Part shown: positions 18,139 to 42,117 of the stretch, piece by piece | Numbering within the stretch: position 1 is the stretch's first letter | Layout of the letters: the number at the start of each line of letters is the position of its first letter | Virus genome (UHGV): UHGV-0103790 | Source: a virus | DNA length: 47,038 nt | Strand: one strand, 5' to 3' | Notes under the pieces: model-generated | The model's input: the letters and a program-made list of their open reading frames with translations, nothing else | Database searches by the model: none | What the model was told of the DNA's origin: nothing | Position numbers and translations under genes: made by a program

Positions 18139-18237
18139 CTGATTTATAATAATCAATGCGGCTAGGGGGCACCCGAAAAGCGACTCATCACCGCCTGCCG
18201 CATTCACTTCAATGATGCCCTGATGAGGAATCTATAT

Positions 18238-38372: not shown

Positions 38373-38789
38373 ATGGCCGCCAAAATGCGAGGTATCCAGC
38401 AGGCGATCAAGCGCACTCAGCAGATTGTAGGCGAGATTACTGGTGAGAAGGCGGTATCAGCAATAAAAGCCGCCAACTATATCATCAGGACTGAATCGGC
38501 CTCCATGACGCCAGTGGCCACGTCAGCTCTGATAAACAGCCAGTATGATACTGTTGAGGTTAATGGCACTCGCATAACTGGCAAGATTGGGTATTCCGCT
38601 AATTACGCCCTGTATGTCCATAATGCACCAGGTAAATTGCTTGGCACGAATACTCCGCGCACAGGGAGACTTAAAGGAAAGGGAAATGTATGGGATAAGA
38701 GCGGCGAGCCTAAATTCCTTCTCAAGGCTGGCGAAAACACACGCGAGCTTGTCGATCAGGTAATCAAAAAAGAGATGACGCTAAAATGA
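38373..38789 (+). CDS. putative tail completion / neck protein
   Basis: 138 aa, in the expected position and size range. Confidence 0.4.
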   Translation: MAAKMRGIQQAIKRTQQIVGEITGEKAVSAIKAANYIIRTESASMTPVATSALINSQYDTVEVNGTRITGKIGYSANYALYVHNAPGKLLGTNTPRTGRLKGKGNVWDKSGEPKFLLKAGENTRELVDQVIKKEMTLK

Positions 38790-39169
38790 GAGATATGCTT
38801 GAGCTTGTTAACCAGTACCTTAGCGATGCCGGTCTTTATGATGGGTGGACTTCTCAGCTTGAGTTCTGGAACGATACCGAAGTTGGCACAGACCGGTTTA
38901 TGGTGCTGCAATCCAATGGTGGTACGAACGTAAGCAAAGACCTCAGCAATGATTATTATTTTTCGCTCTATGTTGTCGGCCAGCAGGGCCAGTACAACAT
39001 CGAAGAAACAAAGGCAAAAGCGCTTGATGTCATCGCATACATCAAAGAGCATCCAGTTGATAGTTGTATTGGAATGATTCAGTTGCAGGCGCCGCTTGGC
39101 CGCCCTACGCTTACGACAGAGAAAAGGCCTGTTTATGAATTGTTGCTGAGGGTTGTTTTTGGTGAGTGA
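38786..39169 (+). CDS. putative tail terminator protein
   Basis: 127 aa; last joining gene before the tRNA cluster and the major tail gene. Confidence 0.4.
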   Translation: MRDMLELVNQYLSDAGLYDGWTSQLEFWNDTEVGTDRFMVLQSNGGTNVSKDLSNDYYFSLYVVGQQGQYNIEETKAKALDVIAYIKEHPVDSCIGMIQLQAPLGRPTLTTEKRPVYELLLRVVFGE

Positions 39170-39246
39170 TGGTTCCCGCGACAGGATTCGAACCTGTAAT
39201 CATCCGATTATGAGTCGGGTGCTTTAACCAGTTAAGCTAAACGGGA
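39170..39246 (-). tRNA. tRNA-Met (anticodon CAT; could be Ile2 if lysidinylated)
   Basis: 77-nt cloverleaf on the minus strand. Acceptor TCCCGTT/CGCGGGA, D-stem GCTT/AAGC, anticodon loop CTCATAA, T-arm ACAGG-TTCGAAT-CCTGT, 3' ACCA. Confidence 0.7.
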
Positions 39247-39249
39247 ATT

Positions 39250-39326
39250 TGGTGCACCATACTGGATTCGAACCAGTTACCGATTGCTTAGAAGGCAATT
39301 GCTCTATCCTGATGAGCTAATGGTGC
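39250..39326 (-). tRNA. tRNA-Arg (anticodon TCT)
   Basis: 77-nt cloverleaf on the minus strand. Acceptor GCACCAT/ATGGTGC perfect, D-stem GCTC/GAGC, anticodon stem ATTGC/GCAAT with loop CTTCTAA, T-arm ACTGG-TTCGAAT-CCAGT, 3' ACCA. Confidence 0.8.
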
Positions 39327-39333
39327 GTTGTGT

Positions 39334-39459
39334 TGTGGTGAGTGGAGTCGAACCACCTTCCATCAGTGCGCTGCTGATTGGGTTACGCGCATCCTGCGGT
39401 TACTTATCCGGAATCTTCACCGCAAAACTATTCCCTAGCTCGCCGTTGAGCTTCACCAC
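39334..39459 (-). other. tRNA-like element (T-arm plus closing stem, no canonical anticodon arm)
   Basis: Minus-strand T-arm GGTGG-TTCGACT-CCACT. A perfect 7-bp closing stem GTGGTGA/TCACCAC spans 126 nt. An alternative 90-nt version (39334-39423) has a 6/7 acceptor stem. No 5/7/5 anticodon arm could be folded by hand. Confidence 0.35.
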
Positions 39460-40180
39460 AACGATAAACCAACTCACTTAACCACATGAATCGTACAACT
39501 CAAAGGTGGTAAATTGATTTACCTGTTGTGTGCCGGGATTCCACCGGCTCCCATCTGTTTTTTAAGACACTCATATATCGTCTGGTCTTGTTGTGGTGGC
39601 CGGTGCTGTTCTCCGGCGTTGCCTACCCTTAGTGAATCGGTTTTTCCGCTCGAGTCCGGAAAGGCATGGGAAACCGCCCACCCTAAACCATCGCATCAGC
39701 CTGCGCATTCACCACAACGGAAAGAGCACTCATTGCATCGACCAAACAGAATCGTCTTTTCGATTATGACTCTACTTTAACGGTTGCTCTGCTGCGCTAA
39801 CCCAATGCTCTTACCTGTTGTGTGCCCATTATTAATCACACCGGGCCAGTGCGCCGAATTCATTGACAAGGAGTCGGAATACCTTGCTGGTGTTTAGCAG
39901 TTAGGCTACTGCCAGATACATTTCTTCGTTTGCATTTATCTTTGTGGTCAGTTTCTAAAAACCCGCAAAGTCGCCACGAAAACTATCGGAAAGAGCGCTT
40001 TAAGCCTTACCACATCTACTTTTGCGCATAAGTCGTCACCTGTGCGGGGATGTCCCCTGAAGCTACTTAACAGCGCTCTTACCTGATAGTTGCTGGCGTC
40101 TCAAATTAACAGTAAATCCGAATGCCACCTGTCAATCTTCCTGCATTCTGCGACCAGCAAGTTAAATCTACACCACCAAT
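39460..40180 (-). other. ~720-nt noncoding, repeat-rich leader upstream of the minus-strand tRNA cluster (candidate structured ncRNA)
   Basis: No credible ORF on either strand. Direct repeats TTACCTGTTGTGTGCC at 39519 and 39811. Two related ~115-nt modules (CGGAAAGAGCrCT...GCTCTTACCTG) at 39716-39830 and 39985-40100 with 9-bp inverted termini AAGAGCGCT/AGCGCTCTT. GC-rich hairpins. Confidence 0.35.
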
Positions 40181-40193
40181 CAAAAGCTGTCAA
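40165..40193 (-). promoter_or_regulatory. consensus sigma70 promoter firing leftward into the noncoding region and tRNAs
   Basis: On the minus strand: TTGACA (reverse complement of 40188-40193), 17-bp spacer, TAGATT (reverse complement of 40165-40170). Confidence 0.55.
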
Positions 40194-40195
40194 CA

Positions 40196-40204
40196 TGATA
40201 TAAT
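40196..40204 (+). promoter_or_regulatory. extended -10 promoter TGaTATAAT for the major tail gene
   Basis: TGATATAAT lies about 35 nt upstream of the RBS AGAGGA and the ATG at 40239. Confidence 0.55.
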
Positions 40205-40238
40205 GCGATTGTTTAGCTAAATACAGAGGATTCTAAAC

Positions 40239-40994
40239 ATGGCTATTTGTGCAAATGATAACGGCATCATCACAGGTCGCAAGTCGCTCATTGAGCTGGC
40301 TGATGGCTGCTGGGATGCTGTGCCAGTAGAGGAAGATTGGAAGTTTTTTGCTCCCATGACCTCAAAAGGCGTCGACTTCAGCCCAAGCACCACCACCTCA
40401 GAGGCTGATGATGGCGATGGCTTTGTCGCGACGCTGGTCACTACCGCAGACCTCACCATTTCCGGTGATTTTGAAGTTCGTAAGGCTGACAAGGCTGATG
40501 AGTATGGCGTGCACAACCTCATCAAATACTTTGTCACCGAAGTAAAAGCGCGTCGCCAGCCGTCACTGTGGGTGCGTCAAACCACCGGTAATACCGTTGT
40601 CGTTGCTTACTGCAACATTACCGCACTGAGCTACGATGGTGGCACTAACGATATCATCACTGGTTCGGTTGAATTCAAGCCTTATGATGGCTCTACTGTT
40701 GACGTGTCCAGCATCGAAGATTTGACGCTGACTACTGATATCAGTGCAGCCAAAACCGTTGCTACTGGCGACACTCTGACGCTCGGTCCGGTAGTTGCGG
40801 CTGGCGGTGTCGAGCCTTATACCTACCAATGGTATAAAGGCACTTCGCCGATCAGCAGTGCTACTACCAACACGTTCACCAAGACCACTGCTGCCGCAGG
40901 TGATGCTGGTACGTACTTCTGCCGCGTGATGGATTCGGCAACCAGTCCTGATTACGTTGACTCCACCAAGTGTATTGTTACCGTTACGCAATAA
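40239..40994 (+). CDS. major tail protein with C-terminal Ig-like domain
   Basis: 251 aa. The C-terminal ~90 aa are Thr/Ser-rich and beta-rich, as in Ig-like domains. Strong promoter and RBS. Position upstream of the chaperone and tape measure genes. Confidence 0.65.
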   Translation: MAICANDNGIITGRKSLIELADGCWDAVPVEEDWKFFAPMTSKGVDFSPSTTTSEADDGDGFVATLVTTADLTISGDFEVRKADKADEYGVHNLIKYFVTEVKARRQPSLWVRQTTGNTVVVAYCNITALSYDGGTNDIITGSVEFKPYDGSTVDVSSIEDLTLTTDISAAKTVATGDTLTLGPVVAAGGVEPYTYQWYKGTSPISSATTNTFTKTTAAAGDAGTYFCRVMDSATSPDYVDSTKCIVTVTQ

Positions 40995-41022
40995 AAAAAA
41001 CCCCCGAAAGGGGGTTTATTCT
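40995..41022. terminator. bidirectional rho-independent terminator
   Basis: AACCCCC-gaaa-GGGGGTT hairpin with an A-run upstream and TTATTCTGTT downstream. It serves the plus-strand tail gene and the minus-strand gene ending at 41016. Confidence 0.65.
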
Positions 41023-41383: not shown

Positions 41384-41635
41384 TCATACACACTCATCAA
41401 GCTGACGGCGCAACATGCATAGCGCACCGCGTGGCATTGCCTGGCGACTCACGCCGTCGAAAATCTTCCGGTTGAGGTAATTGGTCACTCGCGGCCTGAT
41501 AGCCTGCCAGCACGCCTTAATGCTGCCATTTACCGGTCGGCGCTCGAGCATGGCGAACTTTGCATATAGTTCCAGCGTCACCAGTGCATCAAGGTATTGC
41601 TCGCAGGCATAGCGATTTTCGTTATCCATCATCAT
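41384..41635 (-). CDS. hypothetical protein
   Basis: 83-aa ORF with ATGA overlap to the HNH gene. Confidence 0.45.
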   Translation of the reverse strand: MMMDNENRYACEQYLDALVTLELYAKFAMLERRPVNGSIKACWQAIRPRVTNYLNRKIFDGVSRQAMPRGALCMLRRQLDECV

Positions 41636-42117
41636 TTACCATGGTTCTCATGAAAATCATACTTAACCTCCGCCTTTCTCCTTGCTTCAGCGGCCATATT
41701 TAAGTCAGAAAACAATCCAAGATGAATCTTTACGCCATCAACTTTTATGTTTGAGGCCCATTTTTTATGTTGTTTACCCCATGAAACACCAGTAACACCT
41801 GATTTGTTTGTCACCCTGAACTTCATGTTGTGATTATTCTCTTTTGGAGTGACAAGCCTGAGGTTATCTATCTTATTGTTTGTTTTATTGTGGTCTATAT
41901 GATCAATCTGCATTCCGTCAGGAATTTTCCCATTATGCATTTCCCAGATGATGCGATGAACAAGATACTTGACGCCATAGATTCCAACAATCTTATATCC
42001 ATTGCCTCCCACCGCCTTCACCTCGCTTCCGATTTTCACTCTGTTTGAGGTTCTTATCTTCCAGTAAATAGCCCCATCACAATAATAAAAAATATCTGAC
42101 CAATCAGTTATTTTCAT
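41632..42117 (-). CDS. HNH homing endonuclease with AP2-like domain (paralog of 17095-17580)
   Basis: IDHIDHNKTNNKIDNLRL HNH motif. C-terminal SGVTGVSWGK...HLGLFSD...AEARRKAEVKYD AP2-type domain. 161 aa, the same length as its paralog. Confidence 0.8.
   Translation of the reverse strand: MKITDWSDIFYYCDGAIYWKIRTSNRVKIGSEVKAVGGNGYKIVGIYGVKYLVHRIIWEMHNGKIPDGMQIDHIDHNKTNNKIDNLRLVTPKENNHNMKFRVTNKSGVTGVSWGKQHKKWASNIKVDGVKIHLGLFSDLNMAAEARRKAEVKYDFHENHGK

Follow-up and report, generated by a model that had tools for sequence, protein, structure and literature searches.

A candidate acceptor-less tmRNA variant in a probable phage operon of small RNAs and tRNAs

The window studied here is the whole 47,038-nucleotide stretch of the virus genome UHGV-0103790. 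Within it, a tRNA-Arg gene (39250-39326, minus strand) and the major tail gene (40239-40994, plus strand) are separated by a gap of 912 nt, whose open reading frames are only short and of implausible composition. None of eight open reading frames compared with PHROGs has a match, and a protein-coding reading is rejected, in line with the original prediction, which found no credible open reading frame here. An AUG-initiated frame in the +1 register, which overlaps the tag of the element that we call D, varies in both length and sequence.

Along the minus strand, the features of the region follow one another in the order promoter, spacer E, element D, spacer C, tRNA-like RNA B, element F, tRNA-like RNA A, tRNA-Arg and tRNA-Met (Table 1). 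The leftward promoter that had been proposed from its TTGACA and TAGATT hexamers is present as described, and the same promoter lies immediately upstream of D in pIS4-A, Akira and other relatives. Akira also shows the same order of promoter, D, hairpin, A and tRNA. A second TTGACA occurs within the leader segment (40135-40130), and no terminator-like site is predicted between the 40193-40165 promoter and the tRNAs. These predictions support the earlier view of a non-coding leader to the tRNAs, read leftward and rich in structured RNA. We infer that a polycistronic operon of small stable RNAs, probably transcribed as a single unit, runs along the minus strand, and that the region is its part nearest the promoter.

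The idea that the region might be absent from related phages was borne out for parts of it: the relative pIS4-A is without 39341-39707, 39731-39802 and 39988-40161, and so parts of the region behave as insertions. The proposal of one large, ornate structured RNA, on the other hand, does not describe what is found. Rfam searches for GOLLD, ROOL, HEARO and group I/II introns returned no match, at E = 10 over 38500-41000 and at E = 1 over the whole window, and the region is an array of RNAs.

Table 1. Features of the region between the tRNA genes and the major tail gene, in order of minus-strand transcription
Feature	Position	Strand	Evidence or remark
Sigma-70-type promoter TTGACA-17-TAGATT of the small-RNA/tRNA operon	40165..40193	-	10/12 matches
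Leader segment	40090..40161	-	Missing from pIS4-A (insertion relative to L001)
Hairpin spacer E, CUAUC-A-GGUAAGAGCGCU ... AGCGCUCUUUCC-GAUAG	39983..40089	-	MFE -42.3 kcal/mol, z = -3.9
Element D, tmRNA-like coding RNA without acceptor arm	39824..39987	-	Tag frame, Rfam alignments, covariation
PK1 (tentative), AGUUUU/GAAACU and CUUUG/CAAAG, directly 5' of the resume site	39941..39984	-	Sequence inspection
Resume context AUAAAU, resume codon GCA (39933-39931), tag to 39904, stop UAA (39903-39901)	39901..39939	-	
PK-a: S1 CAAGG (39886-39882)/CCUUG (39871-39867); S2 loop CCGA (39877-39874)/UCGG (39857-39854)	39854..39886	-	
PK-b: S2 CGCAC (39853-39849)/GUGUG (39841-39837); S1 GCCC (39846-39843)/GGGC (39827-39824)	39824..39853	-	
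Hairpin spacer C, CACAAC-A-GGUAAGAGCAUU ... AGUGCUCUUUCC-GUUGUG	39713..39822	-	MFE -36 kcal/mol, z = -3.0
tRNA-like RNA B	39591..39716	-	Fold prediction
Element F, 3' hairpin GCCGG-UGGAAUC-CCGGC (39548-39532), then ACACAAC	39525..39590	-	Homologues elsewhere
Minimal spacer hairpin GGUAAA-UCAA-UUUACC and linker	39461..39524	-	Sequence inspection
tRNA-like RNA A	39333..39460	-	
tRNA-Arg(UCU) and tRNA-Met(CAU), distal operon genes	39170..39326	-	

In element D the context AUAAAU is followed by GCA AAC GAA GAA AUG UAU CUG GCA GUA GCC UAA, that is, by a tag of ten codons reading ANEEMYLAVA (compared with ANDENYALAA in E. coli) and a stop. AUAAAU and the GCA that follows it are unchanged in all D loci. 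The frame always consists of ten codons and a stop in an unbiased set of about 32 loci; the stop may be UAA, UAG or UGA, and the codons themselves undergo synonymous changes (for example GCA/GCC/GCG/GCU, CUG/UUG and GAU/GAC). Across 122 D-type loci we find 34 tag alleles for 16 different peptides, which fit the pattern AN(D/E)xxx(L/M)x(A/V)A, and the frame is intact in every one of these alleles. The variable sites of the tag number 5, 5 and 7 at the three codon positions, without a strong third-position skew; and since the final codons of the tag take part in a hairpin as well, the apparent coding signal could partly be a constraint at the level of the RNA. The stop codon, too, sits within a hairpin. 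The original prediction had overlooked this tmRNA-type resume codon and tag frame (minus strand, 39933-39901), which is the main feature of the region.

The Rfam models tmRNA and tmRNA_permuted align to the resume and tag stretch of D, and tmRNA_permuted, alpha_tmRNA and beta_tmRNA hit that stretch at 15-33 bits, not only in the window but also in four unrelated phages. Overall the Rfam scores are 12-33 bits and lie under the gathering cut-offs of 47-84. When E. coli ssrA is compared with the region by BLAST, only the resume stretch matches (E = 0.15), and matches to the PK4/P2 region that had been picked out by eye find no support. An HMM of D aligns to canonical permuted tmRNAs by the tag region alone; because that region was in the search pattern, this alignment is not independent evidence. 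A first scan of viral contigs with a 14-mer pattern gave mostly chance matches, which were filtered before use.

Downstream of the resume codon, D contains two pseudoknots that are maintained by compensatory change. In PK-a, whose loop is T-loop-like, stems S1 and S2 are 99.4% and 97% paired, with double-sided changes at three of the five and three of the four pairs, respectively. In PK-b, which has the conserved loop AUUAAUAAU, S2 is 98.6% paired and S1 97.5%, with double-sided changes at four of five and at all four pairs. Taken together over 71 distinct sequences, the two pseudoknots are 93.2% paired, as against 26-50% when the partners are slid, and double-sided changes occur at 17 of 23 pairs, a result that none of 500 shuffles reaches. 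A set of 22 sequences behaves in the same way: the number of paired cells, the number of double-sided cells and the covariation score are each reached by 0 of 500 shuffles. Two helices from loop to flank stand outside the covariance model and are still 97-99% paired. PK-a is reminiscent of a T arm; the segment with which its loop pairs, further downstream, resembles the D-loop analogue of tmRNA. Upstream of the tag, PK1 is tentative, its first and second helices being 69% and 85% paired in an imperfect alignment.

We find D in 778 phage records, with a coverage of at least 80% of its length in 282. These records come from no fewer than eight unrelated phage groups, which include Roufvirus, Akiravirus, lambdoid/P22-like prophages, P1/P7, Ackermannviridae, Ounavirinae, N4-like phages and Erwinia phages. 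Several of the carriers are classic laboratory phages (P1/P7, Vi01, relatives of Felix O1, P22-like or lambdoid E. coli prophages). The setting differs from group to group. In Ounavirinae it sits within tRNA arrays, on the same strand as the tRNAs; in E. coli prophages its place is between Q/PR'-tR' and the holin gene; and in P7 it belongs to the Op(ban) operon, where tRNA-Asn and tRNA-Thr follow downstream. Across phages it has no constant neighbour. The annotations of about 120 records put no RNA label on D, a gene that in many of the records examined is now unannotated or mis-annotated as 'hypothetical protein', and the literature searched holds no report of tags of the D family, or of tmRNA, in these phage groups. 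The D family is a large phage RNA family that has so far gone unannotated.

Against a template role for D stands the established view that tmRNA has no activity unless it can be charged with alanine. To our knowledge, every tmRNA described so far couples its tag template to a tRNA-like domain that can be charged, and the textbook mechanism needs this link. No acceptor stem, G3:U70 pair or ACCA end was found in D or its flanks. The candidate closing stems GAUAGUU/AACUAUC, GUUGUG/CACAAC and UGUGGUG/CACCACA are all without G3:U70, and in pIS4-A, Akira and Sf14 the promoter directly precedes D. The only T arms on the window's RNA strand belong to A, tRNA-Arg and tRNA-Met, with none in D. ARAGORN detects a tmRNA neither in the window nor at any of 112 D-type loci; among control loci with the same pattern it finds a canonical permuted tmRNA in 9 of 13, and three of the other four are near a contig end. 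Likewise, the upstream acceptor piece of a permuted tmRNA (P2 strand, T arm, 3' strand, CCA), together with the 5' acceptor strand with which the coding piece opens, is present in 0 of the 112 D-type loci, compared with 9 of the 13 controls. A hidden acceptor arm in cis is rejected, since relaxed ARAGORN searches gave just a poor call in A and a false one at a single locus (L042), where the tRNA domain of the supposed permuted tmRNA had been built from a terminator hairpin.

A P2-like closure of D, in which the upstream spacer would pair with the downstream one, is rejected because the arms covary within each spacer (GCGCU/AGCGC in E, GCAUU/AGUGC in C) and not across D. Spacers that bear a T arm are also rejected in the role of acceptor piece: in them the T arm directly adjoins the 3' arm, in standard tRNA order, so that the 3' end of the spacer runs into D and is not chargeable. 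Neither A nor B can be an obligatory partner of D, as both are missing from many D loci and A is also found without D; complementarities between D and B were not found to be conserved across loci. With E. coli tmRNA, no specific pairing of D was detected, the duplex energies obtained being no better than those of shuffled sequences, and a 7-nt complementarity (UGAUUAA/UUAAUCA) is at chance level.

With one-piece tmRNA (ssrA; RF00023), D shares an A-rich resume context (AUAAAU before GCA, where E. coli has AAUAGUC), a ten-codon tag that starts Ala-Asn-Asp/Glu and ends in Ala, a stop codon in a hairpin, and pseudoknots up- and downstream of the coding part, the upstream one of D being tentative. 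It differs in having no acceptor stem, G3:U70, canonical T arm or ACCA end, in its length (about 165 nt versus about 360 nt), in having two downstream pseudoknots rather than three, and in falling far under the Rfam cut-off and being missed by ARAGORN. The best Rfam matches of D are to the two-piece permuted tmRNAs (RF04321, RF01849, RF01850). Its resume site and tag are nearly identical to their consensus cAUAAAUGCaAACGAu, it starts where their coding piece continues past the P2 strand (GAUAG...), and a variable intervening hairpin adjoins it as well. The canonical two-piece forms, however, possess an acceptor piece (T arm, CAGCUCC-ACCA) located upstream, as well as a 5' GGGGCUG strand, neither of which is present in the D type, and they lack the double pseudoknot of the D type. 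Two-piece tmRNAs are also known from marine phages (PMC9004378). In IMG/VR we find phage-borne canonical two-piece tmRNAs (L016, L044, L145 and L200), and canonical permuted tmRNAs of viral contigs carry tags similar to those of D, such as ANDERFLMAA and ANDNAFLMAA. As to genomic context, species 1 and 2 of T4 (rnaC/rnaD) are stable non-tRNA RNAs of a phage tRNA operon and mature along with the tRNAs; by description they resemble D in this respect, but they are without a tag frame.

On balance, we lean towards the reading that D is a new, acceptor-less variant of tmRNA within a small-RNA operon, and that it serves as a tag template. What the sequences establish directly is the anatomy, the family, its pseudoknots and preserved tag frame, and the lack of a recognisable acceptor arm; co-transcription, processing and tagging are proposals. 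A transcript starting at the promoter would pass through E, D, C, B, F and A into tRNA-Arg and tRNA-Met, and the long hairpins and tRNA-like units could punctuate it for processing, whether by RNase III, RNase P or RNase E, and so release D. D would then template a phage-specific C-terminal tag on proteins from stalled ribosomes, with the tRNA-like function supplied by another molecule, perhaps host tmRNA-SmpB, perhaps one of the phage's own tRNA-like RNAs, for instance A or B.

We think it unlikely that D is instead a decoy, which would bind SmpB, S1, RNase R or the empty A site, and so block or retune host trans-translation while its tag goes untranslated. Such a role would accord with the lack of an acceptor arm and of G3:U70, and also with the T-loop-like loop of PK-a, whose partner GAAUUCGGCG seems to resemble the D-loop analogue of tmRNA, the side that binds SmpB. 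A precedent exists in mycobacteriophage DS6A, whose TLD-only tmRNA is thought to inhibit tmRNA through titration of SmpB (PMC4131195; PMC11915505). In DS6A as in D, the phage encodes just part of a tmRNA, one functional half out of two, but in DS6A this is the tRNA-like half without a tag, whereas in D it is the tag half without an acceptor; the closer analogue in our region is RNA A, which is tRNA-like, contains pseudoknots and has no tag frame. A decoy does not need an intact frame, and yet the frame of D always has ten codons and keeps its stop in three forms, and synonymous changes leave the start (AN[D/E]...) and the end (...L/M-x-[A/V]-A) of the peptide as they were.

We regard it as distinctly unlikely that D is a working tag template either without any aminoacylated tRNA-like domain of its own, or with a new, TLS-like 3' double pseudoknot that is chargeable. 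Under the first of these forms, the pseudoknots, possibly together with SmpB, would place GCA in the empty A site, and an ordinary Ala-tRNA would resume translation. Under either form, enterobacterial phages from P1 to Felix O1 would carry an unseen route of ribosome rescue along with their own degron (…LAVA or …LMAA), and the adjoining hairpins and tRNA-like RNAs, with their hypervariable interiors, would be natural tRNA-type scaffolds that display variable small RNAs. Pseudoknots replace parts of a tRNA in the tRNA-like structures of plant viruses and in the dicistrovirus IGR IRES, and decoding on the latter starts at an Ala codon without initiator tRNA. The likeness is one of working only, as these are eukaryotic viruses and their RNAs have no homology to D; by analogy, entry of the IGR IRES type could explain how D works without an acceptor arm.

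Very unlikely, in our judgement, is the proposal that D is a complete one-piece tmRNA, which would be trimmed after PK-b, receive a CCA and be aminoacylated on its own TLS-like mimic, the 3' double pseudoknot. PK-b does occupy the 3' end of D, stacking of its two stems could give a helix of 9-13 bp, D is found without any constant partner, and the tail past PK-b is often RCMCA-like, being exactly ACCA in a minority (for example the AACCAA and L111-type tails). Most tails, however, are not CCA, and the majority of phages have the tail paired with the hairpin that follows. The length of S1 ranges from 4 to 8 bp, a poor fit to the fixed geometry of a tRNA, and the pair equivalent to 3:70 is C-G, so that alanine identity is not expected of D. 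Because the acceptor arm has been lost and yet the tag frame and the pseudoknots have been kept across hundreds of phages, the family is informative either way: it represents either an unknown route into the stalled ribosome or a new viral interference with ribosome rescue.

The repeats and hairpins that had drawn attention to the region are largely confirmed. The 16-bp direct repeat TTACCTGTTGTGTGCC is present in exactly two copies, at 39519 and 39811, where 0.37 matches are expected by chance even allowing three mismatches; the 'partial copy' at 40080 amounts only to the 11-nt GCTCTTACCTG and is more than three mismatches from the 16-mer. The two modules described as ~115 nt long do share their starts, CGGAAAGAGC(A/G)CT at 39718 and 39987, and their ends, GCTCTTACCTG at 39807 and 40075, although their length is about 100 nt. 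The perfect 9-bp inverted termini proved to be the core of a 12-nt pair that is 92% complementary (39988-39999 with 40072-40083), and the GCCGG-gattcca-CCGGC hairpin is there, at 39532-39548. The 13-nt match of GCGCTAACCCAAT, at 39794-39806, to the tRNA-like element exists but is inverted rather than direct, which makes the two segments complementary inside one transcript. In E, the 3' flank is formed by the first 5 nt of D, and stem and flank covary across loci; the unit is missing from pIS4-A. C likewise shows covariation across loci and has a variable interior, with a 96.6% identical copy in LPST10 (H57). As judged from these alignments, the spacers are long, covariation-supported hairpins with variable interiors, gained and lost between close relatives. 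Hairpin units of this kind recur, and what repeats is their closing stems and conserved junctions rather than one element copied.

The suggestion that the units with inverted termini are miniature mobile DNA elements, spreading among phage tRNA regions, strikes us as very improbable. The hairpin units do bear terminal inverted repeats, they are present or absent between phages at least 90% identical, and the same unit is found in unrelated phages (H57, H25). But the interiors of the copies are unrelated, and the stems undergo compensatory changes as RNA helices do. The flanks covary with adjacent sequence (CUAUC/GAUAG, CACAAC/GUUGUG and CGAAAUCU/AGUUUUCG); no target-site duplication is seen, the flanks being mutually complementary instead, nor is any transposase, and mobile elements would leave D unexplained.

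We give almost no credence to the view that D is a decaying, functionless relic of a phage two-piece tmRNA gene whose acceptor piece has been lost, since, for all that its acceptor parts are missing and canonical permuted tmRNAs with similar tags occur in viral contigs, D has been kept across many records and unrelated phage groups, with helices maintained by compensatory changes and a tag frame that is never broken.

The array shows that phage tRNA regions hold several further families of structured RNA: the spacers, as long hairpins, and A and B, as tRNA-like RNAs with variable inserts. At default thresholds, neither A nor B is called as a tRNA by ARAGORN or by the Rfam tRNA model; A appears in ARAGORN at a relaxed threshold only, as a poor 'tRNA-Arg(gcg)'. 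RNA A has an acceptor stem UGUGGUG/CACCACA, a D arm GCUC-AACGGC-GAGC, a T arm GGUGG-UUCGACU-CCACU and a discriminator A. Its CCA is not encoded, and its anticodon arm is replaced by about 77 nt with two pseudoknots; the T stem and one pseudoknot stem covary across five phages. RNA B has an acceptor-like stem of the same sequence, UGUGGUG/CACCACA, and an arm GCGC-AGGCUGAU-GCG, followed by a variable middle with a pseudoknot and, in its 3' part, by an arm GCCGG-AGAACAGCA-CCGGC and then A, the T-like loop being of 9 nt. The B family comprises 29 distinct sequences of 71-228 nt, in which the ends are conserved, and a covarying loop-loop pairing is found in L164 and P7. Homologues of element F occur in N4-like and Klebsiella phages, and its stem covaries (GCCGG/CCGGC as against CCAGG/CCUGG).

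The region between tRNA-Arg and the major tail gene encodes a conserved RNA, which we call D, which has the body of a tmRNA and keeps its tag frame intact; the RNA genes of the region are separated by long hairpins that covary and by tRNA-like units. The window comes from a Roufvirus-like siphophage, and its right part is 88–93% identical to Aeromonas phage pIS4-A and several Klebsiella phages. The region itself comprises 912 nt, and the original prediction that it holds no credible ORF is borne out: the ORFs are short and odd in composition, and none has a PHROGs match. The leftward promoter proposed there, TTGACA-17-TAGATT, was confirmed, and a terminator scan found no terminator-like site downstream of it. 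By these scans, the array is operon-like: it has a single strong promoter and lacks terminators. Read from the sequence, an extended -10 element, TGATATAAT, precedes the start of the major tail gene by 35 nt. Because it overlaps the leftward promoter on that promoter's -35 side, the two operons appear to be driven from overlapping promoters placed back-to-back; the poor -35 hexamer of the element explains its absence from the promoter-scan list.

Features of the region and of the remainder of the window
Feature	Position	Strand	Remark
int-alpA RNA motif (RF02996)	18155-18218	plus	42.6 bits; gathering score 35.8
tRNA-Met	39170-39246	minus	
tRNA-Arg	39250-39326	minus	
A	39460-39333	minus	tRNA-like RNA
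F	39590-39525	minus	further element
B	39716-39591	minus	tRNA-shaped RNA
C	39822-39713	minus	hairpin spacer, z = -3.0
D	39987-39824	minus	tmRNA-like RNA
D stop codon	39903-39901	minus	
D resume codon	39933-39931	minus	
E	40089-39983	minus	hairpin spacer, z = -3.9
Promoter TTGACA-17-TAGATT	40193-40165	leftward	
Extended -10 element	40196-40204	plus	
Major tail gene	start 40239		
161-aa ORF	41632-42117	minus	

The region had been taken as a single element, and it is instead a mosaic. In the proposed comparison with related phages, pIS4-A lacks parts of it, having only ~446 nt at the matching position; 39167-39340, 39803-39987 and 40162-40300 are common to both phages, and the rest is absent from pIS4-A. 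When the region is compared by BLAST with 50,697 phage records, its sub-segments differ in distribution, and ~39823-39974 recurs in hundreds of unrelated phages at 70–97% identity, nearly always without annotation.

The minus strand of D reads ...AAAGAUAAAU GCA AAC GAA GAA AUG UAU CUG GCA GUA GCC UAA, which, judged by its sequence, is a tmRNA resume context followed by a tag. The E. coli tmRNA tag is ANDENYALAA, whereas that of D in the window is ANEEMYLAVA. The Rfam models tmRNA and tmRNA_permuted match exactly at this stretch, below threshold, and the same sub-threshold matches (15–33 bits) occur in four unrelated phages, with alignments spanning the resume consensus and the tag; the Rfam scan suggested earlier, run on the whole window, gave nothing further for the region. 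In every one of ~32 loci, collected from BLAST matches and a 14-mer scan with no condition imposed on the tag, the frame consists of 10 codons and then a stop. The peptides include ANDEQFLAVA, ANDDVVLMAA, ANDDVILMAA, ANDDLMLMAA, ANDNVFLAVA and ANDTQYLAVA, and the frames show synonymous codon changes and all three stop codons. The tag of P7 is ANDDLMMAAA. Taking the downstream domain as the criterion gives 122 loci, whose 34 alleles encode 16 peptides; since most of these loci were retrieved by a pattern demanding a tag-like frame, the set of ~32 is the unbiased one.

Downstream of the tag hairpin, D contains two H-type pseudoknots. In PK-a, which has the stem CAAGG/CCUUG, the loop CCGA pairs with a downstream UCGG; in PK-b, CGCAC pairs with GUGUG, the loop of the hairpin GCCC/GGGC. 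Pairing in a MAFFT alignment of 22 sequences amounts to 100% for the PK-a stem, 94% for the PK-a loop helix and 98% for the PK-b loop helix. A covariance model of the two hairpin stems only gave 96 realigned matches, 71 of them distinct. Across these 71 sequences, 93.2% of cells are paired, compared with 26–50% when the partners are slid, and double-sided changes are found at 17 of 23 pairs; none of 500 shuffles reached any measure. The two loop-to-flank helices, absent from the model, are 97–99% paired with many compensatory changes (CCGA/UCGG, CCAG/CUGG, CCAA/UUGG, GUCG/CGAC, CUCCA/UGGAG). At z = -0.2, the minimum-free-energy fold of D does not stand out, which is no surprise for an RNA with pseudoknots. 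A further pseudoknot upstream of the tag, AGUUUU/GAAACU with CUUUG/CAAAG, is plausible, if tentative. Judged by eye, the loop of PK-a, U(A/C)UUCCGA(C/U)U, is similar to a T-loop with one base more, and its partner GAAUUCGGCG resembles the D-loop analogue of tmRNA, GGAUUCGACG; from these likenesses we infer that PK-a may be the ‘elbow’ of a tRNA-like domain whose acceptor stem has been lost.

D has no acceptor stem, G3:U70 pair, canonical T arm or ACCA end, and the only T arms on the RNA strand of the window are those of A, tRNA-Arg and tRNA-Met. By ARAGORN, neither the window nor the relatives first looked at contain a tmRNA, and the same holds for 112 D-type loci, those with the downstream domain. 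The pattern scan for such loci also retrieved 13 loci with the related tags ANDERFLMAA, ANDNAFLMAA and ANDERFLMVA, which serve as controls. Nine of the 13 are called by ARAGORN as permuted tmRNAs of textbook form, in which an acceptor piece (…GGUUCGAUUCCCGCCAGCUCCACCA) accompanies the 5' strand GGGGCUG, so the method detects acceptor arms where they are present; three of the other four lie near a contig end. The D-type double pseudoknot is absent from all 13 controls, and the covariance model of the D stems has no match in the four that were searched. The D-type loci constitute a separate class. An upstream acceptor strand is ruled out by the promoter directly 5' of D in pIS4-A, Akira and Ounavirinae.

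Permuted tmRNAs are the closest relatives of D, which probably works like the coding part of a tmRNA and almost certainly derives from that part. Because D lacks the defining acceptor-arm features, we class D as a new acceptor-less variant rather than as a tmRNA. Canonical two-piece tmRNA genes with the control tags ANDERFLMAA, ANDNAFLMAA and ANDERFLMVA, complete acceptor pieces and an intervening segment of 100–180 nt are found in IMG/VR viral contigs (L016, L044, L145, L200 and nine further loci), and are likely related to the ancestor of D. Complete one- or two-piece phage tmRNAs are known from mycobacteriophages, Bacillus phage G and marine phages, and the DS6A tmRNA is a TLD-only form (PMC4131195, PMC11915505, PMC9004378). 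A literature search that covered a minority of subscription journals found nothing relevant on tag peptides, tmRNA in these phage genera or partial tmRNAs.

The preservation of the frame argues that the tag is translated. To our knowledge, translation from GCA without a start codon occurs solely via trans-translation. Trans-translation needs a charged tRNA-like domain, and the absence of one from D determines how we rank four readings. The first is that D is a template and receives the tRNA-like function in trans; D would then provide a phage-specific tag for ribosomes stalled in infection. Partner tests established no specific partner. Second comes a decoy for SmpB or the ribosome, and third a self-contained, unconventional tRNA mimic formed by the 3' pseudoknots. 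Least probable is a relic without function. D matters because it is a widespread, conserved and unannotated RNA, at odds in its anatomy with the accepted need for a chargeable tRNA-like domain, and because it is open to direct testing in E. coli phages.

D occurs in 778 phage records, with at least 80% of its length covered in 282, and none of the records listed annotates it as an RNA, showing either no feature or just ‘hypothetical protein’. In Roufvirus and Akiravirus it is divergent from the major tail gene; in E. coli lambdoid and P22-like prophages it has the Q antiterminator with PR'-tR' on one side and the holin gene on the other; in the P1-like P7 it belongs to the Op(ban) operon, which C1 controls, and precedes tRNA-Asn and tRNA-Thr; and in Ounavirinae it sits within a tRNA array, flanked by tRNA-Ile and tRNA-Arg, and has a promoter of its own, TTGACA-17-TAAGAT. 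It is also present in Ackermannviridae, N4-like Gamaleyavirus and Erwinia phages. Its strand is always that of the neighbouring tRNAs. Its upstream neighbour may be a promoter, hairpin or tRNA; on the downstream side there may be a hairpin with B or with A, a tRNA or a terminator, and in some cases nothing is recognisable.

Matches to 39590-40000 are found in 1570 of 5426 complete E. coli genomes, at more places on plasmids (1913, presumably P1-type phage-plasmids) than on chromosomes (1148). In N4-like phages, D is flanked by odd tRNA-like genes (phage Bp4, L004, 1929-2000 and 1559-1637; L005, 858-933), namely ‘tRNA-Ala(cgc)’, which has a 9-bp acceptor and a weak tRNA-Sec-like match of 26 bits, ‘tRNA-Cys(aca)’, and one of undetermined type. 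In Shigella phage Sf14 (L002, ~1020-1110 in locus coordinates), and at the equivalent position in L117 and L101, tRNA-Arg and tRNA-Ser are separated by a tRNA-like sequence that carries no annotation and that ARAGORN does not call; it combines a T arm with the acceptor UGGGACG/CGUCCCA and the loop CUCCAAA, whose anticodon CCA is Trp-like.

The spacers E and C fold as long closed hairpins of the form flank-A-GGUAAGAGC(A/G)(U/C)U ... AG(U/C)GCUCUUUCC-flank. Their 12-bp stem shows compensatory variants across loci (GGUAAUGACACU/AGUGUCAUUUCC, GAUAAUGGCAUU/AGUGCCAUUAUC, GGUAAGGGCGCA/AGCGUCCUUUCC), and their flanks covary with the adjoining sequence (CACAAC/GUUGUG, CUAUC/GAUAG, CUAUC/GAUGG, CGAAAUCU/AGUUUUCG). 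Interiors are unrelated between copies, some holding a T arm or a decayed class II tRNA, and the number of spacer units differs between close relatives. The original prediction was a real and mostly accurate observation here: its CGGAAAGAGC(A/G)CT and GCTCTTACCTG motifs recur, its inverted termini are present, at 12 nt, and its 16-mer repeat occurs twice, as the junction ‘...GGC-ACACAAC-A-GGUAA’ preceding a spacer hairpin. The modules measure ~100 nt rather than 115, and the ‘partial copy’ at 40080 has just 11 nt in common with the 16-mer. Its view of a structured, modular, insertion-like non-coding RNA stands, but the key feature, the tmRNA-like core, was missed. The 13-nt similarity to the tRNA-like element exists, but is inverted rather than direct: on the RNA strand, the C interior AUUGGGUUAGCGC (39794-39806) shows 13-nt complementarity, interrupted by one bulge, to GCGCGUAACCCAAU (39378-39391) in the region of A's second pseudoknot. 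The complementarity might reflect an antisense contact or be left over from a shared tRNA-derived origin; in Akira the pairing shows no clear conservation.

B belongs to a family of 29 distinct members, 71–228 nt long, whose ends are conserved and whose middle is hypervariable. Its D-loop GCUGA pairs with a T-like loop UCAGC, and the pairing covaries (GUCGA/UCGAC in L164, ACUGA/UCAGU in P7). A combines an acceptor stem and a D arm with a canonical T arm, carries two pseudoknots in place of the anticodon arm, and contains neither a tag frame nor an encoded CCA; across five phages, its T stem and one pseudoknot stem covary. The unit order in Akira is promoter-D-hairpin-A-tRNA-Met, and A occurs without D in gmqsjt-1, a Lambdavirus and a P22-like phage. 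A close A homologue, 88.5% identical, is found in the P22-like Salmonella phage BIS08P22 (L130, 701-831), immediately upstream of the antitermination protein N gene, in the early-left leader, not a tRNA region. N4-like phages contain homologues of F whose stem covaries; the 3' hairpin of F is the GC-rich one noted originally. Hairpins and tRNA-like units would act as processing punctuation that frees D, B, A and the tRNAs: the spacer helices, of ~18 bp, would suit RNase III, and the 5' ends of the tRNA-like units RNase P.

Elsewhere in the window, Rfam matches the int-alpA RNA, a known small RNA motif associated with prophages, which has no relation to D. Downstream of the major tail gene, the 161-aa ORF matches in position the ‘HNH endonuclease’ gene of pIS4-A, and the relative vB_Kpn_ZCKp20p has an annotated TnpB-family gene within the aligned region.
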